Shown piece after piece: positions 1 through 12,827 of a stretch of DNA of 13,112 nucleotides. The first letter of the stretch is position 1; every line of letters begins with the position of its first letter. The notes under the pieces are model-generated. The model saw nothing but the letters and a program-made list of their open reading frames with translations. It did not search any database and was not told the origin of the DNA. Position numbers and translations under genes: made by a program. The stretch is from a bacterium (GTDB taxonomy: Bacteria > Babelota > Babeliae > Babelales > RVW-14), in assembly GCA_043822925.1 (NCBI GenBank), contig JBDRBF010000066.1, positions 1 through 13,112 on the forward strand. The letters run 5' to 3'.

Positions 1-725
1 GGGATTTTGTTTAGTTTATAATTGGCTGCAGCGGCGATATATGATTCTGCAACGCCAATAGCTATTCCCGCTTTTGGTTTAGAGAACTGGTAAAATAATC
101 CGTTTGTTCTGCCGCCTGGAAGCATAAGAGTATGAGTTCCTGATGGGAGTTCTTCTTCAGTAATATATTGGAGGTTCCAGAGTACGCCGTTTGTATCATA
201 CATAGGGACGATGACTGCATAGCCATATTCAGGTGAAAAATCGTAACGGAGGCCGTAAGCTCCAACGTTTTGACTGAGCAAGTAATCAGATATGCCACCG
301 GTTTTTGCATTTGTCCAAATCTCAAGCGCTTGTCTTGCTATCGATCGGTAGGTCATCAGTGTTTTTGCTGATTCTTTTGATTCTGTCGAATTTATCTGAG
401 TATCAAACATCGTTACGTCTGTAATTGGTTTTAAAGCAGCGCCTTGTTTTGGGCTGTTTGAGATAAACGTTTCGCCTTTACGGTCGCTATTTTTTCCCTT
501 AAACCATGTTTTTAAACCAATACAGCCACCGGGCATCTCTGTAGCCTGTGTTTTATACGAATATTTTTTTGTATTATATTTTATGGGGTCTCTTTCATAG
601 CAGGCAATAATAGGAGATTTTTCGTTGCCAATTATGAGCTCGTCTACATCAAGACTTTGTGTTTGCAGATGGTTAAGGTGGGCTGCTATTTGTTCTTCGT
701 AGGTCTGAAATACTAATGGTTTCAC
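1..725 (-). CDS. Phage/plasmid-type primase-like Toprim-domain protein (COG4643-like), partial, runs off the left edge
   Basis: Manually translated; not in the ORF track. The frame is open from GTG (725-723) to the window edge, 241 codons: MKPLVFQTYEEQIAAHL...ARQALEIWTNAK...DYLLSQNVGAYGLRY...VVIPMYDTNGVLWNLQYI...MLPGGRTNGLFY...IGVAESYIAAA. The motif order YL..GLR / IPM.D..G.L.NLQ.I / L.GG...G.F / AE(G)Y matches P4-alpha/TraC-like primase cores. Confidence 0.75.
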   Translation of the reverse strand, partial: MKPLVFQTYEEQIAAHLNHLQTQSLDVDELIIGNEKSPIIACYERDPIKYNTKKYSYKTQATEMPGGCIGLKTWFKGKNSDRKGETFISNSPKQGAALKPITDVTMFDTQINSTESKESAKTLMTYRSIARQALEIWTNAKTGGISDYLLSQNVGAYGLRYDFSPEYGYAVIVPMYDTNGVLWNLQYITEEELPSGTHTLMLPGGRTNGLFYQFSKPKAGIAIGVAESYIAAAANYKLNKI

Positions 726-867
726 TCGTTTGTTCTTTCAAGTAGTATAGAAGGGGGAACTTTTAGTCGTTTAAGAGAGAAGACTTTATACAATCATAAT
801 AGCATAAGATGTTCTAATCTGCTATTGGGGGTTTATGCTTTTGTTTACACGGTTATTGTGAATTTTT

Positions 868-895
868 TTGCAAAAAACTTTTAAGACAATATAAT
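868..895 (+). promoter_or_regulatory. Putative sigma70 promoter for the RBR-like gene
   Basis: TTGCAA (868-873), 16-nt spacer, perfect TATAAT (890-895). The -35 sits inside the palindrome TTTTTTGCAAAAAA (864-877). The -10 overlaps the ORF-track ATG at 894, which argues for a downstream start. Confidence 0.5.
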
Positions 896-971
896 GGGTT
901 TCTCAAAAAGATTTACGAGTGTTTATTGGGAGAAATATGGGGAAAAGACTATACAATTTGGTTATTTGTTT

Positions 972-2480
972 ATGAAAAAAATGGCGGCAGTAATTTTTGT
1001 TCTTTTTGGAACTTTTTCGTTATTGCAAGCACAATCATGGGGTCAGGTACAGGCACGTTCGGCAACGGTTGCAAATTATGCTGAAATGGGGCTTGCCCTT
1101 GCCAGCATTCCGGCTGATATTGCTGCGCATGTACAGGACGGGAAAAAGAATAAAAAAACGTCGCTTATTTTACATCTTGCGTACGATGCGCTCAGCATTT
1201 TGAATAAATTTTTTTCTATTTATAACGATATTAAAATGCAAGAGCGTGATGGTAATGTTGCTGGCGCGAGCAAAGAGTTTTCTGTTAATGGCGTTATTAT
1301 GCTGTGTGATTTAATACAGTTGGGTCAGCATGCTAAACAGTTTTTACAGATAAAAGATGAACCTCAGGAGTCACTAGAGATATTAGATGCTCAAACTGAA
1401 AAAGAAATATCGGCGCTTGCTTCTACTTGGAACACTGTTGGCCTGACGAGTTTTAAGGGTGTAACGGCTTTTGCATTGGCGTGGTGTCAGAGCAACAATA
1501 GTGGGGCAAAAGCGCGCGCCGTATGCGCTGTTGCACATGCTCTTACGCGGTTATTAGATGCATATGCGCAGATGGACCCTCGTTCTTCTTATCGAAATTT
1601 TGTTTTGGTCGCAATTTTGGCAAATGCTGCATGGCTTATTTTTGAATTAACCAATCAAGAGTTAGAGCTGGAGTCAAAAAAACTACAGAAAAAGCGAGCT
1701 CAAAAAAAAGAGTTAAAGGCAGGTGAGCCAGGTTTTTGTGGTTATTGTTGGAATTATAAGAATAATGTGATCATAGGTGTTGATGGGGTTTGTTATTGTT
1801 CTGATTGCAGAGCACGAGATAGTTTTTTGTTGCAGCCAGAGTTGCCGGCAAGAAATAATTGGCCGCAGGTTGCTCCGGTTAGGTCAGAGGCTGGTTTGGT
1901 TAAGCCTGCGGTAGGGCAAGATGGACAAGTAAATAATCAGCCGATTAAATGTCCAATTTGCATGGAAGAAAAAAACGAAGATGATATGTTCGTGTTAGGG
2001 TGTGAAGATCATTTTTGTCGGGATTGCATGCAGGGACATCTTAAGGTTCGTTATGAAGATCATGGAACAGATTTTGATAGAGTAGTTTGTCTCAACCCAA
2101 ATTGTGCACATCATTATGTGATAGGAAGAGATGAAATCCAAGCTATTAATAATGATCCAAAATATCTTGAGAGGTATGATAATGCTGCTCGTGAACATCA
2201 ACAGGCGGAAATGGGCAAAAAACTTGGAGCTGAAAATATTGATTTAAGTATGTTTGGTGGAAGTATAAAATCATGTCCTAAGTGTGGTAATGGGGTCGAG
2301 AAAGATGGAGGATGTGATCATATGACGTGTAAGTGCCGCCATGAGTTTTGTTGGCGTTGTTTAGGGGATAGAAGAAGTTATTCAGGACATACTTGTTATC
2401 AAACAGCGCCTTTATTGCGTAATTCTACGACTGCTCGGTATCTTAATCAGAATTCGACACCTGTATTAAATTTTCGGTGA
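972..2480 (+). CDS. Exported/membrane-associated RBR-type (Ariadne-like) E3 ubiquitin ligase-like protein: RING1 + RING2/Rcat, no IBR
   Basis: Likely start is ATG 972 with signal peptide MKKMAAVIFVLFGTFSLLQA. Hydrophobic segment at 1599-1649. Cys cluster at 1737-1808. RING1 CPIC..CEDHFCRDC..CLNPNC at 1950-2105. Rcat CPKC..VEKDGGCDHMTCKCRHEFCWRC..H.C at 2274-2396. Confidence 0.85.
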   Translation: MKKMAAVIFVLFGTFSLLQAQSWGQVQARSATVANYAEMGLALASIPADIAAHVQDGKKNKKTSLILHLAYDALSILNKFFSIYNDIKMQERDGNVAGASKEFSVNGVIMLCDLIQLGQHAKQFLQIKDEPQESLEILDAQTEKEISALASTWNTVGLTSFKGVTAFALAWCQSNNSGAKARAVCAVAHALTRLLDAYAQMDPRSSYRNFVLVAILANAAWLIFELTNQELELESKKLQKKRAQKKELKAGEPGFCGYCWNYKNNVIIGVDGVCYCSDCRARDSFLLQPELPARNNWPQVAPVRSEAGLVKPAVGQDGQVNNQPIKCPICMEEKNEDDMFVLGCEDHFCRDCMQGHLKVRYEDHGTDFDRVVCLNPNCAHHYVIGRDEIQAINNDPKYLERYDNAAREHQQAEMGKKLGAENIDLSMFGGSIKSCPKCGNGVEKDGGCDHMTCKCRHEFCWRCLGDRRSYSGHTCYQTAPLLRNSTTARYLNQNSTPVLNFR

Positions 2481-2519
2481 GTTGAATTATCCAATCCCGA
2501 CTTGGCGGCATCAAGGTTA

Positions 2520-2981
2520 TTAATTAATTGAGAAAACTACTAGATGTGTATTTTTACTGGCTGTGGTCATTGGGATTCCAGCAAGTTCGCCTTCTTCTTG
2601 AATTTCTTTAATATACATATTCTTTTCCCTAATAAAAAAGATTTCTACATCATATGTATCATCAATAAATTTTTTATTTCGATACGCAAGGTTCAGGTCA
2701 TTACAAGAAAAGGGCTTACCTGAAGGCTCTCGCTTAAGCCAATCGGGGATTTGGTAATTGTCTTGCACAAATATAATAAAATCAAAATCAGAATATAAAC
2801 TATTGCGAAATCCTGGTGGCTCATATTTGCCGAAATCATTCTTTACTGAAGAACCAATTAAACAAATTTTGATAATTTTTTCGTTTGGCAAAAACAGAGA
2901 TAAGATTTTATTAATCGCTTTTTTTCTTAGTAGTTCTGTTTTAGTAGAAGAATAAACTTTTTTTCTTGGTCTGTTTTTCAT
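2520..2981 (-). CDS. DNA polymerase beta-superfamily nucleotidyltransferase domain protein
   Basis: 153 aa with the hGS...DhD signature (ICLIGSS...YSDFDFIIFV) and a later acidic strand (YDVEIFF). Confidence 0.7.
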   Translation of the reverse strand: MKNRPRKKVYSSTKTELLRKKAINKILSLFLPNEKIIKICLIGSSVKNDFGKYEPPGFRNSLYSDFDFIIFVQDNYQIPDWLKREPSGKPFSCNDLNLAYRNKKFIDDTYDVEIFFIREKNMYIKEIQEEGELAGIPMTTASKNTHLVVFSIN

Positions 2982-2986
2982 GGGTT

Positions 2987-3895
2987 TTATTCTTTTTTAT
3001 AAGCGTAAATTAAGCTGTCTTTAATTTCAAAAGAAAAACCAGCTTTATTAAAGATATCGAACAGTTGTGCAAGCTTGCTTAGTGGCGCGTGATATTCCAT
3101 AATTATTTTATTAATAAATTTTAATTTATCTTGATCAAAGAGATCTTGAAAAACGTCGTACTCGGCGCCTTCTATATCTATTTTTAAAAGGTCTACGTCT
3201 TGATTTATATAGTTTGATAATCTTGTTATAGGCACGATTTCATAGTTTTCTGTTTTGCCGTTTTGGCTTTGGCAAACGGTTCCAGATGTTGACCCTGGAT
3301 TATAGAGTTTTATTTCGCCATTTTCTTTATATGCGAGAGCTTTTTTGAAAACTTGAACTTGTGTAATATTGTTATTTTTTATGTTTTTTCCCAAAAGCTC
3401 AAAATTTGTTTTGCTGGGCTCAAAGCCGATAATTTTCGCATCAGGGTACATTTTTTTGAAAAATAGAATACTTATACCAATATTGCTGCCCGCGTCAATA
3501 ATAAACGGCTCTTTATTTTGTGATTCAAAGGCATAAATCTTATGGATAAAAATCTCGTTTACTAAGCAAAAAAGCATGACATAATCGGTAAAACTAATAT
3601 TAAGACCTAGAATATTCTCTGAGTAAATAGTCCCGTTCTTTGGTTGGTGAGAAGCATCTTTGAGTAGAAGTTTTGTGTTTGCGTAAATTTTTTGGAACGT
3701 ACTTGGTTCGCCTGGATACTCAAAAGTATCTTTTTTTATGTTTTTCTTAATAAATGCACCGGTACTATTTATTAAAAAATTAAATGGTCGAGCGGGAACT
3801 GTTAATTTTGCGGTTAAAAATAATAAGCCAAATAAAAAGACAAAAAAAACCGTAACATCAAGTATCATTCTGAGTAGTTTTAAAATTATATTCAT
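2987..3895 (-). CDS. FkbM-family SAM-dependent methyltransferase with N-terminal membrane anchor
   Basis: Motifs IIDAGSNIG, IIGFEP, DLLKIDIEGAE and MEYH; hydrophobic N-terminus VTVFFVFLFGLLFLTA. Confidence 0.9.
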   Translation of the reverse strand: MNIILKLLRMILDVTVFFVFLFGLLFLTAKLTVPARPFNFLINSTGAFIKKNIKKDTFEYPGEPSTFQKIYANTKLLLKDASHQPKNGTIYSENILGLNISFTDYVMLFCLVNEIFIHKIYAFESQNKEPFIIDAGSNIGISILFFKKMYPDAKIIGFEPSKTNFELLGKNIKNNNITQVQVFKKALAYKENGEIKLYNPGSTSGTVCQSQNGKTENYEIVPITRLSNYINQDVDLLKIDIEGAEYDVFQDLFDQDKLKFINKIIMEYHAPLSKLAQLFDIFNKAGFSFEIKDSLIYAYKKE

Positions 3896-3922
3896 AACTA
3901 ATTATCTTTCTAAATTAAAAAC

Positions 3923-3947
3923 TTGAATTTAAACATTGAATTTAAAC
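3923..3947. repeat. Tandem direct repeat TTGAATTTAAAC x2 in the divergent promoter region
   Basis: Exact 12-mer copies at 3923-3934 and 3936-3947 (13-bp period). Confidence 0.7.
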
Positions 3948-4023
3948 CGTATGGATTTTACTATACCAAATACGTTGTTGAATGAAATAAAATGAGTGTG
4001 AAATATTTTAGAGAGGAAGAAGG

Positions 4024-5187
4024 ATGATTGTTTCAGGTATTCAAACAATGCTTTTTACTTGTGTCATTTTTATGAGCATTTTGTGGGCTTTTATATGTAT
4101 TAAAATACTTTTTTTAAACCAGCGTTTACAGAAAATTTTTATGATTTTGTGGAGTGGCTTTTTGCTTTTGATTGCATGTTTTTGTTTGTCAAAACAAACA
4201 ATTCTAGCTGTCGTGCTTTATAATATAATTACTTTTGCTTTTAGTATAAGTTTACTGGCTTGTGTTGCGTTATTGTATGTTATTCGTAAATATAAGCGGT
4301 TACAGTCAGTTCTGTATGATTTCTTTTTGTTTTTTAAATCAAAGATGCTTAAAAAAACACAGCTTTCTTATGATAAACGTTTAATTTTTAAGCATTATAT
4401 CTTGTACGTATTACGTTATATACGTGCTTTAGAGTTTGTAAAAACGCCGATATATAAGCAAGCCAAGCAAGATAAGCTTTTAAGTTATAAACTTTTTTTT
4501 GTTAACTATAGCAGTATGTTTGTCATGTTTAATGAGATTTTTGGCCATGAAGTTTACAAGTTTTCGTCAGATACTAAAACACCTGTTATTATTGATGCGG
4601 GTAGTAATATAGGACTTGCAATCTTATATTTTAAAGCCTGTTTTCCCGATGCGCATATTATTGGTTTTGAGCCAGGACCTGAAACGTTTCAGATTTTACA
4701 AAAAAATGTGATAGAAAATAAGCTTGCGAACGTTACAATTCATAATAAAGCACTTGATAATAAAACTGGTCAAATTACATTTTATACGTGTAAAGATAAC
4801 GCTGCGATTGGTGGATGGAGTCTTAAGAGTCAGACGAGCACGGCGTATCAAGAATGCCCACAACTTATAGATGCGACTCCCCTGTCGCCATATATAACCC
4901 AACCTGTTGATCTGCTCAAAATGGACATAGAAGGTGCTGAAACAGCTGTTTTGGAAGAGCTTGCAAGCTCTGGTAAACTCAAACTTGTTAAACGAATTAT
5001 TCTTGAGTATCACCATCATATGGTTAATGTGAACGAAGATAATTTATCTCTTGTTTTAAAACTTTTTGAAGACAATGGCTTTGGGTACCAATTTAATTAT
5101 GTAGAATTGGCTGTTCCTGAAAAAAATAATCGTAATGTCTTGATATTATATATTTATAATAAAGCGCTTGTTACGCATAATTTATAA
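4024..5187 (+). CDS. FkbM-family SAM-dependent methyltransferase with about three N-terminal transmembrane helices
   Basis: Motifs IIDAGSNIG, IIGFEP, DLLKMDIEGAE and LEYH; three hydrophobic stretches in the first ~90 aa; purine-rich RBS (GAGAGGAAGAAGG) directly before the ATG. Confidence 0.9.
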   Translation: MIVSGIQTMLFTCVIFMSILWAFICIKILFLNQRLQKIFMILWSGFLLLIACFCLSKQTILAVVLYNIITFAFSISLLACVALLYVIRKYKRLQSVLYDFFLFFKSKMLKKTQLSYDKRLIFKHYILYVLRYIRALEFVKTPIYKQAKQDKLLSYKLFFVNYSSMFVMFNEIFGHEVYKFSSDTKTPVIIDAGSNIGLAILYFKACFPDAHIIGFEPGPETFQILQKNVIENKLANVTIHNKALDNKTGQITFYTCKDNAAIGGWSLKSQTSTAYQECPQLIDATPLSPYITQPVDLLKMDIEGAETAVLEELASSGKLKLVKRIILEYHHHMVNVNEDNLSLVLKLFEDNGFGYQFNYVELAVPEKNNRNVLILYIYNKALVTHNL

Positions 5188-5197
5188 TATATAACGT

Positions 5198-5636
5198 ATG
5201 AATGTGTTAGATTATTTTAAGTCATGTCTAGAAGCGACTGTAAGTCTCATGGCCGTAAAAAATATGCTTACTGAAAATCAAGAAGCTGTTTGTATTATCG
5301 ACGTCAGAAACGGCCCTCCACAACTTTTAAAAACTAAAATTAAAGGGGCAATTGTTGTGCCACAAATGTTTATTGAACAGCGCCTGGACCAATTGCCTAA
5401 AGATAAAATTTTAATTTTGTATTGCAGGGAGACCTGGTGCAGCTTAGCTGTTAGCTGTCAAAGCTGCCGTACCGTTATTAGAACATGGTTTTAAAGTAAA
5501 AGAATTATACGGTGGCATGGCTGCTTGGAGTACGCTTAATTTGCCGGTTGAACCTGTTGATGGCTGCTCGGTTGTTGCGGGTGGTGATGATAATAAAAAA
5601 CAGGTTGCAGCTGTTAATTTCTGTTTTTATGCTTAA
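5198..5636 (+). pseudogene. Single-domain rhodanese-like protein, frameshifted by a 7-bp tandem duplication
   Basis: The first frame has IIDVR and LYCRETWC. TTAGCTG is duplicated at 5444-5457. Removing one copy gives ...CSLAVKAAVPLLEHGFKVKELYGGMAAW...FYA* (TAA 5634-5636, 143 aa), restoring the rhodanese L.GG..AW motif. Confidence 0.85.
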
Positions 5637-6406: not shown

Positions 6407-8485
6407 TTATTTTAGGCCTTCTGTTTTTTTATCAAAAATATACTGGTCAACAACTTCTTCAAGTATAACAAGTGGCGTTGCACCAATCTCCAGGACAACG
6501 TTATGGAATTCTCGAATATCAAATTTTGTACCCAAAGCATCTTTGGCCCGTTGTCTCAGTTCAAGAATTTTTAGTTGGCCAATTTTGTAAGAACATGCTT
6601 GTCCAGGGGATACAAAATATCGTTCTATTTCTGAAACGACGGTTGTTTTTGGCATCCCGGTATTTTTTCCCATATAATCAATAGCTTCTTCGAGCGACCA
6701 TCTCTTTTTATGGATACCGGTGTCAACAACTAAGCGAACTGCACGTACAAGTTCCCATTGCAAGTGGCCCAGGCGTGTAAAGCATGATGAATAGAAGTTT
6801 TGTTCATAGGCAAGTTTTTCTGCATACAGAGCCCATCCTTCAGTATATGCATTATCGCCATTAAGTTGTCGCATGATCGGCAGGGTTGATTCTTGTTGAA
6901 GGGATATTTGAAAATGATGTCCAGGTTCTGCTTCATGGACCGTGAGCGTTTCCATCTCGAACTTTGGATTTTCGTGTGAGCTGCGTAGATTGACAAAGAA
7001 GACTCCAGGACGAGAGCCATCAATATTTTGCCGGCGATAAAAAGCTGGAGCAGCTCCTTCTTCTTCGTGCTGAGGGACCGCTTGAATTTTTACGGGTGAT
7101 TGTGGTTTAAGGTAAAACAGTGGATATAATTCTTTTCTGCTTCGTTCTAAAATAGTTCCGAAATCTGTTAAGCATTGTTGGCGGCCTTCTTCTGTTTCAG
7201 GATAAAAAAATTGGGGATTTTTTGAGAGTTCTTGCATTTGCAAAGCCACTGTTTTTTCTTTATCTTCTAAGCCTGCTTGTACAAAAATTGTTCGCATTTC
7301 TTCTTGGATTCTATGAACTTCTTGTAAGCCCAAGTTATGAATTTGATCAGCAGAAAGATTGGTTGATGTCTGATGTTTAAGCAAAAAAGCATAATACTCG
7401 TCGCCATCTGGTAAAGCCCATACGCCGTTATTTGCAGTAGTCTGGCTGAGCATGTTTTTTAGATAATCTTGTAATTTTTGATACGCCGGATACACAAGTG
7501 TTTGGATGATGTTTGTTGCTTTTGCGAGCACTTCTTCTTTATTTGTTATTCCTATAGTTTCTATATTTTTAGCTAGGTGCGAGTAAAAAATATTTTCTTC
7601 GATTGTCCGAGGTGTTATTTTTTGCATCATGCTTATAATTTTTGAGAGCGTAAATGCTGGTGGAATAACGCCCAGATTTTTTTGATGCTCGAGTAACGTA
7701 ATTGTCTGTTCGAATTGTTCAGGGATCTTGCTCAGCCGAGTAACGTACAGCTCGACATCTTCTGGTGTTTTGAGTGGGTGAATCTGGGTGAATAGATTGG
7801 TTATATCAAAGATTATTCCGTAGTTGTGGCTGATTTGGTAATTATGAAATAAGAACTTTTCGTTATTAACTGACAGTTTAAATTTCCAGAGAAAGATTTT
7901 ATAGGATATTTTTTGCTCTGGAGATGCGTTATCAAGAGAACAATTTTGTAAGAGTTTTAGATTTTGTTTTGTTTCTTCAAGATCAGCAATTATAGCATCA
8001 GGCGAAACATCATTGAGATAGGCATTGTGGTCGTAGATGCCGATGGATTCAAAAAGACCGCGGTAAGTCAGAGCTTCTGGATTTCTATACATTTTTGATA
8101 AAAAAAGCGTGTCAAAGACGTTGTCTATATTGTCATCCCGTCCTGCGCTCTCCCTGGCCTGCCCTGCTATAGCCGTGTCTTTATTATCATCCCAGAAACG
8201 CTCACCCTGAGCCGCGCTCATGCTGAGCCCTGAGTTTGCCGAAGGGTCGAAGCATCGAAAGGGATCTGGGATCCAGTCCTTTATCTGTGCGACGGTCTTG
8301 AGCGCAGCAGCTTTATCTTTGTGAGCTGCCTGCAAAAGTGCTTGCCAGTAAAGATGGGCGTTGGGCTTGTCCTCAAATAGTTTACCGGTATTTGTTGGGA
8401 TTTTTTGGTCAGCATTGAGCATGTTTATAGTGCTTGCGAGTATCAAGATGGCACATGTGCTGAGTAATTTCCTGAAATAAGCCAT
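6407..8485 (-). CDS. DUF885-family exported protein with HExxPGHH metal-binding motif
   Basis: Motifs GVWALPDGDEYY, APAFY..DGSRPGVF, HEAEPGHHFQ, AYTEGWALYAE, RAVRLVVDTGIH, EIERY..PGQACSYKIG and FDIREFH. Likely start is ATG 8485 (RBS AAGGGA, signal peptide MAYFRKLLSTCAILILASTINMLNA); the ORF track extends it to 8560. Confidence 0.9.
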   Translation of the reverse strand: MAYFRKLLSTCAILILASTINMLNADQKIPTNTGKLFEDKPNAHLYWQALLQAAHKDKAAALKTVAQIKDWIPDPFRCFDPSANSGLSMSAAQGERFWDDNKDTAIAGQARESAGRDDNIDNVFDTLFLSKMYRNPEALTYRGLFESIGIYDHNAYLNDVSPDAIIADLEETKQNLKLLQNCSLDNASPEQKISYKIFLWKFKLSVNNEKFLFHNYQISHNYGIIFDITNLFTQIHPLKTPEDVELYVTRLSKIPEQFEQTITLLEHQKNLGVIPPAFTLSKIISMMQKITPRTIEENIFYSHLAKNIETIGITNKEEVLAKATNIIQTLVYPAYQKLQDYLKNMLSQTTANNGVWALPDGDEYYAFLLKHQTSTNLSADQIHNLGLQEVHRIQEEMRTIFVQAGLEDKEKTVALQMQELSKNPQFFYPETEEGRQQCLTDFGTILERSRKELYPLFYLKPQSPVKIQAVPQHEEEGAAPAFYRRQNIDGSRPGVFFVNLRSSHENPKFEMETLTVHEAEPGHHFQISLQQESTLPIMRQLNGDNAYTEGWALYAEKLAYEQNFYSSCFTRLGHLQWELVRAVRLVVDTGIHKKRWSLEEAIDYMGKNTGMPKTTVVSEIERYFVSPGQACSYKIGQLKILELRQRAKDALGTKFDIREFHNVVLEIGATPLVILEEVVDQYIFDKKTEGLK
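8131..8276. repeat. Nested palindromic REP/RPE-like repeat cluster inserted in-frame in the DUF885 gene
   Basis: GC is about 58% (87/150 counted over 8131-8280) in an AT-rich gene. The outer inverted repeat ATCCCAGA (8189-8196) / TCTGGGAT (8265-8272) encloses three nested NNNT-GAG...YCGA-ANNN units. A second TGTCATCCCG begins at 8131. Confidence 0.8.
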
Positions 8486-8846
8486 ACTATCCCTTTTCGA
8501 AAAATATATAAAAAATAAAAATATTCTTATAGGGATACTATAGTTATTTAGAGTTTTCAATCTTTTTATCGTTTAATTCTTTTATATGGTAATTATTTGT
8601 CTCAGCAGGCGTTTTTATGAGGCACCCCGTTTGATAAAGGGGCCTAAATAGGCCAAACTGGGTATAGGTATGTGAGCGCTTTACGCTGACCACGGGTAAG
8701 TCTTCTTTGGTTGTTACCGAGCTGGGGGATAGATTAGACGTTGTTGTGTAAGTTTTGCTTTAATTTATTACTTGTTTTTCGTGTTTTTTGCCATACAAAG
8801 GCGATGACTTGTGGCCCGAAGGCGTTTATATCATGATTATACTGGT

Positions 8847-9662
8847 TTATTTGTCATCACACAGCGAAATGAGTTTGGTAAGCACGCTTATTTCTTCTTT
8901 ATAACTGATAAGCTCTTCGGACTGTTTTTTTGGCGTGCAAATTTGGCATAAACTTGTCTGTAACTTGTCTATTTTTCCCGACTTTATGATGATATTTTCA
9001 AACTCGCTGCAGCGTTTAAAAAATTGTGCAGTTTCTTTTTCGTTGCTTAGATCTTGTACTGTTTCATAGTCGATGTAAAGTTCCCTGGTACAGGCTTTTT
9101 CTTGTATTGTTTTATGATTGATCGTGCAAAATTGATAATATCTAAGTGCATGTAAAATGGTTGGTTTTTTGATGGTGAATTTTGCCAGCCCTTGCTTTTT
9201 ATCTGATATGGTAATGTCCAGGTCGTAGGCTAGCGGGGCGTCCAGCCAGTGGAATTCGTTCATAAGTTTTTTGAAAAATGAGTTCGATACGCAGTGTTTG
9301 AGTGCGAAATAAAAAACAATGTTCCGTTTTTCTTCCAGTGCAAGATCTTTGCAGGCTACTTGTACAGCTTCTAAATCTTCGTCCAGAATACCGAATGCAA
9401 GTTTGAGCTCTATATCCTGTTTTTCTTTTTTGATTCGATTATTTTTTTGCATCAGTTCTTCTTGAAGGTCTTTTTGAGCTACTTCCTGAGCGGCTTGTAT
9501 TATGCTCTCCCAATTAGGTGTCTGTGCGCGTACTTTTTTGATTCTTTCTTGGTATCCAGGCTTGTGTGTATTTTTCATGCCGTGTACCAGAATATTGTTG
9601 AGTAAAAGTAGTGAAAGAAGAGAGAGAAAAGAGTTTCTGCGAATGTGTTTGAATTTTTTCAT
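8847..9662 (-). CDS. Hypothetical secreted protein
   Basis: 271 aa; RBS GGAAGGA; signal-like N-terminus MKKFKHIRRNSFLSLLSLLLLNNILVHG followed by MK; charged helical region; no recognisable domain. Confidence 0.7.
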   Translation of the reverse strand: MKKFKHIRRNSFLSLLSLLLLNNILVHGMKNTHKPGYQERIKKVRAQTPNWESIIQAAQEVAQKDLQEELMQKNNRIKKEKQDIELKLAFGILDEDLEAVQVACKDLALEEKRNIVFYFALKHCVSNSFFKKLMNEFHWLDAPLAYDLDITISDKKQGLAKFTIKKPTILHALRYYQFCTINHKTIQEKACTRELYIDYETVQDLSNEKETAQFFKRCSEFENIIIKSGKIDKLQTSLCQICTPKKQSEELISYKEEISVLTKLISLCDDK

Positions 9663-9980
9663 GGTGATCCTTCCCCGTTAAGTACCACTCAGAATTATGT
9701 TAGTTCACTGTACCTAATGAGGGGCGTTATTTGCAAGCGTATAGAAAAGTTTGAGGTGCGGTCAAAAAATAATTGGGGGTTCTTTCTACGCTCTGCAATT
9801 TATTGTTTTTCTTTGAGCATATTTGTTTTTTTACTTCTAATTAGTCCAAGTTGCTTTAACGCTTCCGGACAGTCTATTAAAAGCTGGTCAATAAAGTTGT
9901 CTACGCATTTATGTGCGAGGTTGACGATACTATTTACTTGGTTTTGCAGGACAGTTTCAAAGCTGCCCGAGGCCACGAAA

Positions 9981-10030
9981 TTAAAATGAATAAAGCCCTT
10001 GTTCTTGCCTATTGGCAAGAACAAGGGCTT
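9981..10030 (-). terminator. Perfect 17-bp hairpin with a minus-strand T-rich tail; putative intrinsic terminator for the deaminase gene
   Basis: AAGCCCTTGTTCTTGCC (9993-10009), loop TATT, GGCAAGAACAAGGGCTT (10014-10030). On the minus strand the GC stem is followed by TTTATTCATTTT. Confidence 0.5.
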
Positions 10031-10154: not shown

Positions 10155-11357
10155 TTAAATATATGTAGGGTGGATCCAAGAAACAAATCGTGGACTGCCC
10201 GATCTGAGCTGGTGGCGGCCAAATATTTGTGTGCGCAATTTGGTGAATTTGTCTTTAAACTTTTGTGTTAGTTCTTTCTTTTCTTTGTCTGGTAATAAAC
10301 TGGCAGTAATTCCGTTTAAACTTATTTTTTTAAGATCTTCTATCGTAAAGCGATAGGTATCGATCAAGAGATCATATTCGTGATTAAGATCGATGCCAAA
10401 TATTCCTGGGTCATCAGTGTTGATGTTAATGCACAGGCCAGCATCCCACAGATATCTTATAGGGTGTTGTTTATAGTTGGGGTATACACCTAATCTTACG
10501 TTGCTGGTGACACATATGTCTAGTGGGGTTTGTTGCTCGGCGAGTTTTTGTACAAGTTTTGCGTCTTCGATGCACCGTACCCCGTGATCTAGGCGTGGCG
10601 CGTTGCAATAATTAAGAGAGTTCCAGATACTTACAGGGCCCTGAAATTCTCCTGCGTGGGGAATTATTGGTAGGTTTGCTTTGTGTGCTTTATCAAAGAT
10701 AGTCTGGAATTCAGGTGCTTGTTTAGTAATGAGCGTTTCACTCAGTCCCATTGCGACTAGTCCGTAATTTTCTTTGCGCGCTTTAAGTAAAATATCGACG
10801 AATTCTTCTGGTTGGAAAAATTTAGTGCGGGTTAAATCAAATATCCAGTTCCAGGAGATATTAAATTCTTTTTGTGCGCGTTCTCTTCCTATATTAATAG
10901 CTTTGACGATTGTTTGCCAATCCAGGCCGGAAGCCATACAGTTGCTGCTGAGTGAAAAAATAACTTCTGAGTAACAAATATTATTGCGTGCAGATTCTTT
11001 GCCATATTCATATGCAATTTGTGTGAAATCTTTTGGGGTTTTAAGCACCCCCATAATTTGTTTAAAGAATGTGACGAAATCTTCAAAAGATGAAAACTTG
11101 GTCTGTTTATAAAATTGTTTTTTGTTTTTATACGGCATTTTGATATGGTTTCTTTTGGCTATTTCTATGATTGTGTCTGGGGCGACAGAGCCTTCTAGGT
11201 GGACGTGAAGCTGGGTCTTTGGCATTTGGTGCGCAAATTCATGCAACTTTTTTTGCAGCTCTGTGCTGTGTGCGAGTAGGGCGCCTGAAAAAGCAACGAT
11301 AAATGTTATTAGAGCTAAGCATGTGTAGCGTGTGAAAAAACTTTTTTTTCTGATCAT
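10155..11357 (-). CDS. add: Adenosine/adenine deaminase family protein with N-terminal signal peptide
   Basis: Motifs PKTQLHVHLEGS, IPHAGE, RLDHG and INTDDP are all intact; RBS AGGA; signal-like MIRKKSFFTRYTCLALITFIVAFSGALLA. Substrate specificity cannot be determined from motifs. Confidence 0.9.
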   Translation of the reverse strand: MIRKKSFFTRYTCLALITFIVAFSGALLAHSTELQKKLHEFAHQMPKTQLHVHLEGSVAPDTIIEIAKRNHIKMPYKNKKQFYKQTKFSSFEDFVTFFKQIMGVLKTPKDFTQIAYEYGKESARNNICYSEVIFSLSSNCMASGLDWQTIVKAINIGRERAQKEFNISWNWIFDLTRTKFFQPEEFVDILLKARKENYGLVAMGLSETLITKQAPEFQTIFDKAHKANLPIIPHAGEFQGPVSIWNSLNYCNAPRLDHGVRCIEDAKLVQKLAEQQTPLDICVTSNVRLGVYPNYKQHPIRYLWDAGLCININTDDPGIFGIDLNHEYDLLIDTYRFTIEDLKKISLNGITASLLPDKEKKELTQKFKDKFTKLRTQIFGRHQLRSGSPRFVSWIHPTYI

Positions 11358-11574: not shown

Positions 11575-12827
11575 GTGAAAAAATTAATGGGTCTTGGTTC
11601 TTGTTTTGCGGTACTGTTTTGTTTTGTTACGGCTTTTGGCTCTATTTTTGCTGCTGGTTCTGCTGTTCATGCAACTAAGGCACCCCGCAAGATTGCAGTT
11701 CTCACCAGTAAAGGAGGTAATGGCCATATGGCTGCCTGTGCAGTTTTAAAAGATATTTTTCCTAATTCAAAAATAACGCTTTTTAATCCAATATACGATG
11801 AATTTCATAATGTATTTGATGGTGAAGATTTGTATGTGAAACTTTTCCAAAATGGTTGGATAAGAACGTTAAATATTGTTGCAGGGTATGTTGGGCCGAC
11901 GTATTTTAAAATGAACAGTAGATCGATTAAAAAAAGTATTGTGAAGTATCTTGAGCAAGAAAAGCCAGATATCTTGATTTCGGTCATCCCATTACTTAAT
12001 TTTCCTGCGTATGAGGCTGCCCAGCAGTGCAAGACACCATTTATGAATATTACGTTAGATGCTGACCTTACACTTTGGTTGCTTGATATGGAACGTTGCA
12101 AAACGCATAATTTTGTTATTACGGTTCAAGCTAAAACGCCACTTATTAAAAAACAGTTGGCGCGGCATAAAGTTCCGGCATCTTGTGTGCGTGAAGTTGG
12201 ATGCTCTTTGCGTAAAGATTTTTTTGAGAAAAAAGATATTCAGGCCATTAAAAAAGAATGGAATATTCCAACAGGAAAAAAAGTTATTTTGCTGATGCGT
12301 GGTGGTACGGGTTCTACGAAGTTAGTTGACTATGTAGAAGCAATTAGCGAGCTTGATAAGCCATTACATTTATTAGTTTGCATTGGAAAGAATACAAAAC
12401 TTATAAAAGAGCTTGAAGAAGTCAGGAAAGAGCTGCAGCATAATAAAAAGAACAAAAAAATATTACGTTTACGATTGTTCCATTTACTAAAAAAATACCA
12501 GATCTTATGGCTATTTCAGATGTGCTTGTTGCACAATCAAGTCCTAATACGTGTAACGAAGCGATTCATATGAATCTTCCTATACTTATAGATAGAACGA
12601 GTCCTACGGTTTTTTGGGAAAAAGCGACTATTGATTGGGTTAATATGTTTGGATATGGAAAAATATTCAAGAGCATGAGAGCTCTTAAGAAGTTAGTTAT
12701 CGACTCTCTTGATAAGAAACAAGAGCTTGTCGTCCAGAAGTCAAAGCAAAATATAGCGTTTAATGCGAATATTTATGGGATTGTTGATTCGCTTATTACT
12801 GCCAATAAGCTCAAGCATTCAAAGTAG
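11575..12827 (+). pseudogene. MGDG-synthase/UgtP-like GT28 glycosyltransferase split by a frameshift at an A7 run (real lesion or sequencing error)
   Basis: The first frame has GGNGHMAA, PDILISVIP, GGTGS and VCIGKN. Adding one A to the run at 12454-12460 gives ..NKKNITFTIVPFTKKIPDLMAISDVLV..EAIHMNLP, joining ORF 12507-12827 into one 417-aa protein. Confidence 0.85.

Follow-up and report, generated by a model that had tools for sequence, protein, structure and literature searches.

A bacterial RING1-helix-Rcat protein with a signal-peptide-like start, a candidate host-directed ubiquitin ligase of the Babelota

Here we describe P0001, a 502-residue protein encoded on a contig of a Babelota genome (GenBank assembly GCA_043822925.1, contig JBDRBF010000066.1), which joins a signal-peptide-like start and a six-helix domain to the RING1 and the catalytic Rcat of the RBR ubiquitin ligases, and which has no IBR domain between these two. 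The entire contig, 13,112 bp long (C66 in our numbering), was analysed and is called the window below. We think it rather probable that P0001 is an E3 that is exported through the Sec pathway, acts on the host, and transfers ubiquitin from host E2~ubiquitin in a Cys-dependent manner. This view is based on the domain anatomy of the protein, on zinc ligands and catalytic residues that are intact, on conservation across a family, on the bacterial context of the gene, and on a genome that has no detectable E2 or ubiquitin of its own. Judged by its sequence, P0001 is to be classed as an RBR-derived RING1-helix-Rcat ligase rather than as a canonical RBR.

The gene and the parts of its product are the following (positions in the window, strand, feature, and the evidence for it in brackets).

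972-2480, + strand: coding sequence (CDS) of the 502-residue protein P0001, stop codon included (open frame)
972-1037, + strand: signal-peptide-like N-terminus, residues 1-22, with MKK, a hydrophobic core and LQA/QS (hydropathy, family alignment)
1068-1721, + strand: six-helix N-domain, residues 33-250 (model by AlphaFold2, AF2; family conservation)
1596-1655, + strand: hydrophobic core of helix 6, residues 209-228, previously called a transmembrane-like (TM-like) segment (Kyte-Doolittle 19-residue peak 1.75)
1722-1949, + strand: low-confidence insert, residues 251-326, with a Cys cluster of C256, C259, C274, C276 and C279 at nt 1737-1808 (AF2, predicted local distance difference test score, pLDDT, below 50)
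1950-2105, + strand: RING1, residues 327-378, with eight zinc ligands (Pfam, phmmer, alignment, Foldseek)
2106-2273, + strand: Cys-free helical linker, residues 379-434 (Cys count, AF2)
2274-2396, + strand: Rcat, also called RING2, residues 435-475 (Pfam IBR_1, alignments to ARIH2 and ARIH1)
Residues 476-502: disordered tail of low pLDDT, the 27 residues after Rcat (AF2)

The C-terminal module

Both ends of the C-terminal module are of the RBR type. In RING1, the ligands C327, C330, C344, H347, C349, C352, C373 and C378 follow C3HC4 spacing, each of the eight ligand columns is at least 90% conserved in the 47-row family alignment described below, and the modelled domain superimposes on RING1 of 1wim with a TM-score of 0.75, by target, and a root-mean-square deviation of 1.6. 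In Rcat, the ligands are C435, C438, C453, C455, C460, C463, H473 and C475, and the catalytic set consists of Cys448 (nt 2313-2315), His450 (nt 2319-2321) and Glu458. A preliminary description of this DNA, made from its letters alone, had placed a GGCDHM catalytic site here, with the Cys codon at nt 2313-2315, and the site and the codon are as it said. In alignments, the GGCNHM of ARIH2 and of ARIH1 falls on C448 and H450, and an Asp of ARIH2 on E458; the Rcat triad is described as a catalytic Cys, a His two residues on, and an acidic or amide third residue (PMC11354881). The intact Rcat that had been claimed also holds in a profile search, in which two Pfam models score over their cut-offs on residues 431-467: IBR_1 with an E-value of 7.7e-11 (42.1 bits, cut-off 27) and IBR with 2.4e-7 (31.1 bits, cut-off 24.3).

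What lies between the two domains sets P0001 apart. The 56 residues from C378 to C435 contain no Cys, and for this reason the IBR domain is absent from P0001; AF2 models helices at residues 386-392 and 396-428 instead. The label of RBR-type ligase, as first given, is therefore right for RING1 and for an intact Rcat, and wrong for the IBR, the remaining domain by which the RBR family is recognised.

Searches with the sequence and with the model agree that the module is Ariadne-like, as had been proposed. Against the PDB, phmmer gives ARIH2 as the best match of P0001 (2.8e-15), in two stretches that cover RING1 (310-365) and Rcat (429-478), and RBR ligases make up all 35 of the distinct sequences at E<=0.01. 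The profile of the 47-member family finds ARIH1 (5.8e-26), ARIH2 (7.4e-25) and CUL9 (3.3e-21) best, and then HOIL-1, parkin, RNF216 and HOIP. When the AF2 model is compared with the PDB by Foldseek, nearly all of the matches listed are RBR ligases, with HOIL-1 (8eaz) at the top (1.6e-4) and three matches at E<=0.001.

A bacterial family with and without the IBR

P0001 is one member of a diversified bacterial family. Quick word-indexed searches gave three relatives for the whole protein and two for the RBR part, and an exhaustive profile-free search was used instead; with P0001 as the query it returned 3,422 proteins at E<=0.001, of which 103 reach 1e-10 and 20 reach 1e-30. Among the best 151 representatives of clusters at 50% identity, P0001 included, the N-domain was found in 48. 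The RBR part is also matched by phmmer in 40 of these 48 clusters; the remaining eight comprise five with Pfam RING and IBR-type matches, one with a RING alone (these matches being partly below cut-off), and two, P0003 and P0094, with neither. The N-domain is tied to RING1/Rcat in 46 of the 48 clusters.

P0003 (378 aa) has the N-domain without an Rcat, followed by a different C-terminal part with a weak hint of DUF3293 (E 0.0042). P0094 (366 aa) has the N-domain, keeps the RING1-type Cys columns, ends without an Rcat, has no Pfam match and may be a shortened form of the family. These two proteins are the only sign that the N-domain has been re-used.

The family alignment has 47 rows, 45 of them RBR rows, at 23-38% identity to P0001. 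Fifteen of the 16 zinc-ligand columns are at least 90% conserved over the 47 rows, the exception being the column of H473, and the column of the catalytic Cys is conserved to the same degree. Among the 45 RBR rows, that Cys is kept in 44 and the His two places on in 35.

How widely is the family spread? In the 261 species genomes of the GTDB phylum, every listed one of which is at most about 2.1 Mb, matches to P0001 at E<=1e-5 occur in 36 genomes, or in 25 of the 189 of high quality and 12 of the 34 of the same family. Pfam IBR_1 exceeds its cut-off in 43 of the 261 genomes (in 64 at E<=0.001), compared with none of 14 control genomes. Carriers among closed single-contig chromosomes include G123, G184, G242 (with 10 matches), G024 and G251; in G123, of 1.45 Mb, the N-domain and the RBR part share a frame of 449 aa. 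The preliminary description had envisaged a horizontally acquired module, and a recent or isolated acquisition does not stand: the composition of the gene is native (see below), and the gene sits in a diversified bacterial family with a conserved N-domain of its own.

Tandem genes for the N-domain with RING1/Rcat are seen in two places, with three genes at 540-4413 of a 4.6-kb contig (L002, G145:C112) and two at 7191-9969 of another (L016, G144:C17). These arrays suggest local duplication and diversification, as in effector families. Separately, many genomes of the phylum, mostly of family f5, hold frames of 104-158 aa that match positions 2-31 of IBR_1 at E-values of 1e-5 to 8e-4, under cut-off (for example G061:C1:1161105-1161191). 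They are probably an unrelated small zinc-ribbon protein and were excluded from the RBR-type count.

The family also varies in the very domain that P0001 lacks. Sorted by what lies between RING1 and Rcat, the 45 RBR rows fall into four states.

Single RING1, no IBR (P0001 among them): 23 of 45 rows
Second RING1, no IBR: 7 of 45 rows
Full IBR, with 7-8 Cys in 98-122 residues: 12 of 45 rows
Partial IBR: 3 of 45 rows

Thirty of the 45 rows are thus without an IBR and yet have all the Rcat ligands. In four IBR-bearing rows that were scanned, the stretch matches the IBR model, over cut-off in P0014 and P0027 and just under it in P0031 and P0098. The helices on either side of the IBR, in rows that have one, look like the two helices of the linker in rows without it, and on this comparison of sequences the IBR looks to have been cleanly excised, with both flanking helices kept. 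A quick tree, which is unrooted and leaves out P0003 and P0094 (no RBR part) and P0004 and P0051 (truncated), places nine of the 12 full-IBR rows and the three partial rows in one group (Shimodaira-Hasegawa-like approximate likelihood ratio support, SH-aLRT, 92), and P0001 with the IBR-less P0008 and P0020 (85). As the tree is unrooted, the direction is taken as loss of the IBR because eukaryotic RBRs have one.

Two copies of RING1 before one Rcat occur in P0011, P0019, P0026, P0030, P0032, P0035, P0038 and P0044. We know of no eukaryotic RBR that is built in this way.

The N-terminal half

The start of P0001 had been read as a Sec-type signal peptide, and hydropathy and the relatives are consistent with this. 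The Kyte-Doolittle peak over 19 residues is 1.59, around residues 4-22, and a hydrophobic N-terminal stretch is present in all 45 alignment rows with an intact N-terminus (11-residue peak of at least 1.78). In most rows the stretch ends in x-A and then A or T, a small-x-Ala site, shortly before a conserved motif. RBR open reading frames (ORFs) of the phylum that have no N-domain (L005, L009) also begin in a signal-like way.

The helical and hydrophobic region that had been noted behind the start is modelled as six long helices, predicted with a pLDDT above 90 within the full model and, when the domain is modelled alone, with a pLDDT of 89.1 and a predicted TM-score (pTM) of 0.82. This N-domain has no Pfam match even at E<=10 and no NCBIfam match. 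Against PDB folds, Foldseek finds nothing at E<=0.001 (best E 0.4, TM-score at most 0.33), and the ESM Atlas gives only generic helical bundles with TM-scores of at most 0.5, nothing usable. The weak top Foldseek matches are unrelated helical membrane proteins, and no identity was drawn from them. Within the family, E38, N85, P159, G163, A170, Q173, R182, N218, W221 and E225 are near-invariant over the 47 rows. Conserved polar and small residues show helical periodicity on helices 4 and 6, and N218, W221, L222 and E225 share one face of helix 6; all four are invariant in a separate alignment, L222 lying outside the near-invariant set of the 47 rows.

The transmembrane-like segment of the preliminary description is the core of helix 6, with a basic stretch, residues 234-249, behind it. 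It does pass the hydropathy threshold in P0001, but helix 6 reaches 1.6 in only eight of the 47 family rows (median 1.23), so that the anchor is doubtful; helix 4 reaches this value in 11 of the 47, the other helices in none, and the median net charge behind helix 6 is 0 across the family. These hydropathy values and this charge leave a conserved membrane anchor unsupported, and a conserved transmembrane segment or hairpin, as in Inc-like or tail-anchored effectors, is not found across the 47 rows. The N-domain is better described as a bundle of helices, two of them buried and moderately hydrophobic, and its most likely role lies in localisation, in the choice of substrates or in regulation.

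The insert behind the N-domain (residues 251-326) is absent from P0002 and P0004 and has no Pfam match. Both RING1 copies of P0019 can be aligned in register, over their first half, with this insert, but not significantly (E 0.37 and 0.47), and the Cys cluster of the insert may be the remnant of a second RING1.

Host dependence and export

The source bacterium is apparently a reduced-genome, obligately host-associated organism. Its genome (1.52 Mb in 86 contigs, 92% complete, with an estimated contamination of 3.2%) has five ORFs for TLC ATP/ADP translocases and three secretin matches over cut-off. A search with one marker per system found neither FHIPEP, the export gate of type III secretion systems, nor a VirB4-type ATPase in this 92%-complete genome. 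Cultured Dependentiae, a name that probably applies to this phylum, are described as protist parasites with only Sec/type II export (PMC4378268, PMC6561590). In Babela, type II is given as the sole secretion system, and eukaryote-like proteins with signal peptides are taken to be secreted into the host (PMC4378268, PMC6561590); for Chromulinavorax, signal peptides are reported in 44% of the CDS (PMC6561590). The Babela description lists one F-box protein, one RING-finger protein and three secreted ubiquitin hydrolases, and the term IBR is absent from its text (PMC4378268).

Proposed mode of action and its alternatives

Given such a lifestyle, what might P0001 do? We propose that the signal peptide would carry it over the inner membrane, and that it would leave the cell in vesicles or through the secretins, in a type II-like way. 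Once in the cytosol of the host, the C-terminal module would fold around four zinc ions and RING1 would dock host E2~ubiquitin. From there, ubiquitin would move to Cys448 of Rcat as a thioester, with the help of His450 and Glu458, and would be passed on to a host substrate. A host-directed role had been suggested from the outset, and five ORFs for ATP/ADP translocases in the genome are in keeping with it; export, passage into the host, use of an E2, Cys-dependent ubiquitin transfer, activity without an IBR, and the target are the steps that we infer.

A number of points weigh against this proposal. The IBR is missing from P0001, and in HOIP Cys mutants of the IBR reduce E2-dependent activity while RING1 and the IBR are said to be required for E2-mediated delivery (PMC3463842); for both reasons, the loading of Cys448 may be weak or may differ. 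The RING1 His of P0001 is shifted by one place (C344-E-D-H347-F-C349), so that D346 stands in the canonical His column, which is His in 44 of the 47 family rows. No Pfam RING model scores over its cut-off on P0001, zf-RING_2 reaching an E-value of 1.5e-4 and 22.4 bits on residues 326-358, below its cut-off of 27.3. A Cys-rich zinc protein would have to cross the periplasm and then, by some route, a host membrane. Helix 6 and the basic stretch behind it are what one would expect of an inner-membrane anchor that keeps the ligase in the cytoplasm of the bacterium. In favour of the proposal, the bacterium seems to have no ubiquitin cascade of its own. The preliminary description saw no E1, E2 or ubiquitin-like gene in the window, and genome-wide searches agree: ubiquitin was not found in the 92%-complete genome, and neither was an E2 (UQ_con), the latter a weak negative since the same search also found none in the 14 control genomes, and one that did not extend to E1-like genes.

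A bolder version of the proposal concerns how such a protein arose, and we hold it to be possible, with the doubts outweighing the support. The lineage would have acquired an Ariadne-type RBR, joined it to a signal peptide and a new six-helix domain, and then mostly excised the IBR, to leave a minimal RING1-helix-Rcat E3 that loads from host E2~ubiquitin. As part of this version the N-domain might be a device for membrane insertion or translocation, a role that is suggested by helices 4 and 6 being its most hydrophobic.

Of the readings that compete with a host-directed, Cys-dependent ligase, the one that survives best is a pseudo-ligase or decoy, which we regard as unlikely. The module would fold, bind host E2~ubiquitin, ubiquitin or an Ariadne partner, and act by sequestration without turnover. 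This would accord with the absence of the IBR and with the drop in E2-dependent activity in HOIP when its IBR is mutated (PMC3463842), with the displaced His of RING1, and with a family in which the His two places on from the catalytic Cys is replaced in 10 of 45 rows and the Cys itself in one of 45, an indication of some relaxation. P0001, however, retains Cys448, His450 and Glu458, and the catalytic Cys is kept in 44 of the 45 rows despite their low identity to P0001. Also, if a ligase without an IBR were inactive, the retention of every Rcat ligand in the 30 IBR-less rows would be difficult to account for.

Less probable again is a type I inner-membrane protein, with the signal peptide cleaved off, the N-domain in the periplasm, helix 6 spanning the membrane, and RING1-Rcat in the cytoplasm, where they would work on bacterial proteins or with a bacterial ubiquitin-like system. 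The order of signal peptide, helix 6 and basic stretch obeys the positive-inside rule, helix 6 of P0001 is hydrophobic enough (1.75) and is followed by the basic residues 234-249, and zinc fingers fold readily in the cytoplasm. These are properties of P0001 more than of its family, in which helix 6 seldom reaches 1.6 and the median charge behind it is 0, as given above; moreover, the model makes helix 6, at a pLDDT above 90, the final helix of the N-domain, and its polar face is conserved. The partners are a further difficulty, since an E2 or ubiquitin was not found in the genome (weak evidence as regards the E2) and the nearest relatives of the module, without exception from eukaryotes or giant viruses, work with eukaryotic E2s.

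We give an equally small chance to the same chemistry with an unusual acceptor, either a non-lysine or non-protein target, in the way that HOIL-1 and ARIH1 modify Ser/Thr, or the loading of another ubiquitin-like modifier. Non-canonical ubiquitylation by ARIH1 and Ser ubiquitylation by HOIL-1 have been described (PMC10657180), and HOIL-1 is the top fold match of P0001 (8eaz, E 1.6e-4); the column of the His two places on is variable in the family as well. The sequence is nevertheless silent on the chemistry of the acceptor, and P0001 keeps the standard set of Cys, His and Glu.

Origin of the contig

Finally, the gene might not be bacterial at all and instead be a mis-binned or chimeric fragment of eukaryotic or viral DNA, a reading that we reject as highly improbable in view of native composition, bridged junctions and homologues in closed genomes. 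It would draw on a module that is otherwise eukaryotic or giant-viral, on a genome that is a bin of 86 contigs with some estimated contamination, and on the G+C content of the gene (0.406), which lies toward the high end for the genome, being reached or exceeded by 7.7% of its random 1.5-kb pieces.

The evidence that the contig is bacterial, as the preliminary description had it, is of several kinds. Its 4-mer profile agrees with that of the other contigs of the bin (r 0.993, rank 41 of 56 counted from the lowest), and the 4-mer fit of the P0001 gene is ordinary (28th percentile). The window is gene-dense (coding density 0.80), with bacterial-type neighbours. Among Logan contigs, those of X1, a groundwater run that is possibly the source sample, cover 223-2356 and 2349-3042 with 0 differences; a biofilm run from another study (X3) has five identical pieces, including 2319-2581 over the 3' junction of the gene, and a third study (X5) has further identical pieces. 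The 3' junction is thus bridged by contigs of two runs and the 5' junction by one, possibly the source sample, and the uncovered stretches in X3, X5 and X10 carry no meaning. The same architecture stands in the closed 1.45-Mb chromosome G123, and Rcat-type domains score over cut-off in 43 of the 261 genomes of the phylum.

The gene and its surroundings

The P0001 frame could also begin earlier, at ATG 894, which would give 528 aa. In most family rows 23-43 residues precede a conserved NYAEM motif; in P0001 there are 34 from the start at 972 and 60 from that at 894. The only good promoter-like match lies across the upstream start.

867-895, + strand: promoter-like match, TTTGCA/TTGCAA and TATAAT with a spacer of 16-17 nt (10 of 12 positions match; frequency as in shuffles)

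Its TATAAT box, a -10 box, overlaps ATG 894. We favour the start at 972 because of this overlap and because of the lengths that precede NYAEM in the relatives. The match had been described as a sigma70-like promoter, a claim that is not supported: 650-2700 holds six promoter-like sites and shuffled sequences hold 6.0 +/- 2.2, which is the level of chance.

The window has a G+C content of 0.368, against 0.373 for the genome. Pfam and NCBIfam identify as neighbours of P0001 two FkbM methyltransferases, a rhodanese, a DUF885 protein, an adenosine deaminase and a glycosyltransferase, which are bacterial-type genes, as had been noted. No paralogue of P0001 was found in its own genome by tblastn or by an IBR_1 profile search, an Rfam search of the window gave no match, and a repeat scan of the window found nothing linked to the P0001 gene. 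None of the neighbours in the window recurs in the 20 kb around the G123 homologue or in 13 kb of G144, apart from a distant adenosine deaminase in G144, and because of this lack of synteny the position of the gene gives no hint of its function.

The two FkbM-family methyltransferase genes are divergent, at 2987-3895 on the - strand and 4024-5187 on the + strand (Pfam 6.1e-16 and 2.3e-15; TIGR01444). Their products both have hydrophobic N-termini, and the pair adjoins a rhodanese of 98 aa at 5198-5494. Four further neighbours also have N-termini that are hydrophobic in the manner of a signal or anchor: the adenosine deaminase at 10155-11357 on the - strand (TIGR01430, 2.1e-79), the DUF885 protein at 6407-8560 on the - strand, in which about 170 residues precede the Pfam match, an ORF of no family at 8847-9662 on the - strand, and a glycosyltransferase like diglucosyl-diacylglycerol synthase at 11575-12573 on the + strand. 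The adenosine deaminase, if exported, would suit the scavenging of purines from the host. An inverted repeat at 9993-10030, with perfect 17-bp arms and a loop of 4 nt, is probably a two-way terminator hairpin; it separates an ORF at 9645-9989 on the + strand from the 3' end of the adenosine deaminase gene. A contig of 372 nt from a groundwater metatranscriptome matches 2290-2652 with four differences, so that it covers the Rcat codons at the 3' end and runs into the beginning of the downstream ORF, which is convergent; it comes from a relative or strain variant and, as carry-over of DNA is possible, is no proof of transcription.

Significance

RBR ligases are regarded as enzymes of eukaryotes and giant viruses, and the class is missing from the catalogue of bacterial E3 mimics. 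The family described here is sizeable, with 48 N-domain clusters and with Rcat-type domains in 43 of the 261 genomes of one phylum, and it probably tampers with the ubiquitin system of protist hosts. If active, it would be a further mechanistic class in the manipulation of host ubiquitin by bacteria. It would also be a natural experiment on the role of the IBR, with 30 IBR-less, 12 IBR-bearing and three intermediate relatives, and would offer structural work compact and possibly constitutively open RBR modules. The family also sharpens the question of how the signal-peptide-bearing effectors of Dependentiae get into the host cytosol. Should the minimal RING1-helix-Rcat reading be true, the IBR would be dispensable for the RBR mechanism, and a bacterium without an injection apparatus could place an active ubiquitin ligase in its protist host.

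Comparison with known systems

The closest known relatives of the module are the Ariadne RBRs (ARIH1/HHARI, ARIH2/TRIAD1 and CUL9). They share with P0001 the C-x4-C spacing of the last RING1 pair, the G-G-C-x-H-M around the catalytic Cys of Rcat, and the F-C-W-x-C-L-G that follows. Ariadne proteins are marked as a subfamily by a C-terminal Ariadne domain that masks Rcat and by a UBA-like domain, and P0001 has neither. It differs from them in having no IBR, no autoinhibitory Ariadne domain, and no UBA-like or acidic region (there is no Pfam match outside residues 326-467 at E<=0.01), in ending 27 residues past Rcat, in its signal-like start and six-helix domain, and in being encoded by a bacterial gene.

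HOIP offers a comparison for the missing domain. In its RING2-LDD core, the chemistry of Rcat runs without RING1 and the IBR, with the E2-dependent activation lost (PMC3463842). P0001 is less reduced than this core, in that RING1 and both linker helices are kept and only the IBR has been dropped.

Giant viruses (Klosneuvirinae, Fadolivirus, Megavirus and others in BFVD) have RBR-type E3s that are likewise RBR modules in parasites of protists. Foldseek against BFVD matches P0001 to proteins of Hokovirus (4.9e-6), Fadolivirus (1.8e-5 and 2.2e-5) and Klosneuvirus (2.3e-4). These differ from P0001 in being viral, and the N-domain was not seen in the BFVD matches. In trees of the ubiquitin system, Dependentiae, Chlamydiota and viruses are reported to be often sister to eukaryotic clades (10.64898/2026.05.08.723234).

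Among bacteria, the U-box and F-box proteins of Legionella, SneRING of Simkania, and the RING-finger and F-box proteins of Babela are also eukaryote-derived E3 parts that need the E1, E2 and ubiquitin of the host (PMC4378268, PMC12591485, PMC5819833). They are RING/U-box adaptors or F-box proteins without the catalytic Cys of an Rcat, and most of them enter the host through type III or type IV systems, whereas P0001 belongs to the thioester-forming RBR class and has only Sec and secretins in view as a route. Our search of the literature found no description of a bacterial RBR-type ligase, although RBR families may be included in figure S3 or the supplements of one study (10.64898/2026.05.08.723234). 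Thus, eukaryote-derived E3 parts in intracellular bacteria are well known; as far as our searches reach, what is new is an RBR class in bacteria, its form without an IBR, and the N-domain to which it is joined.

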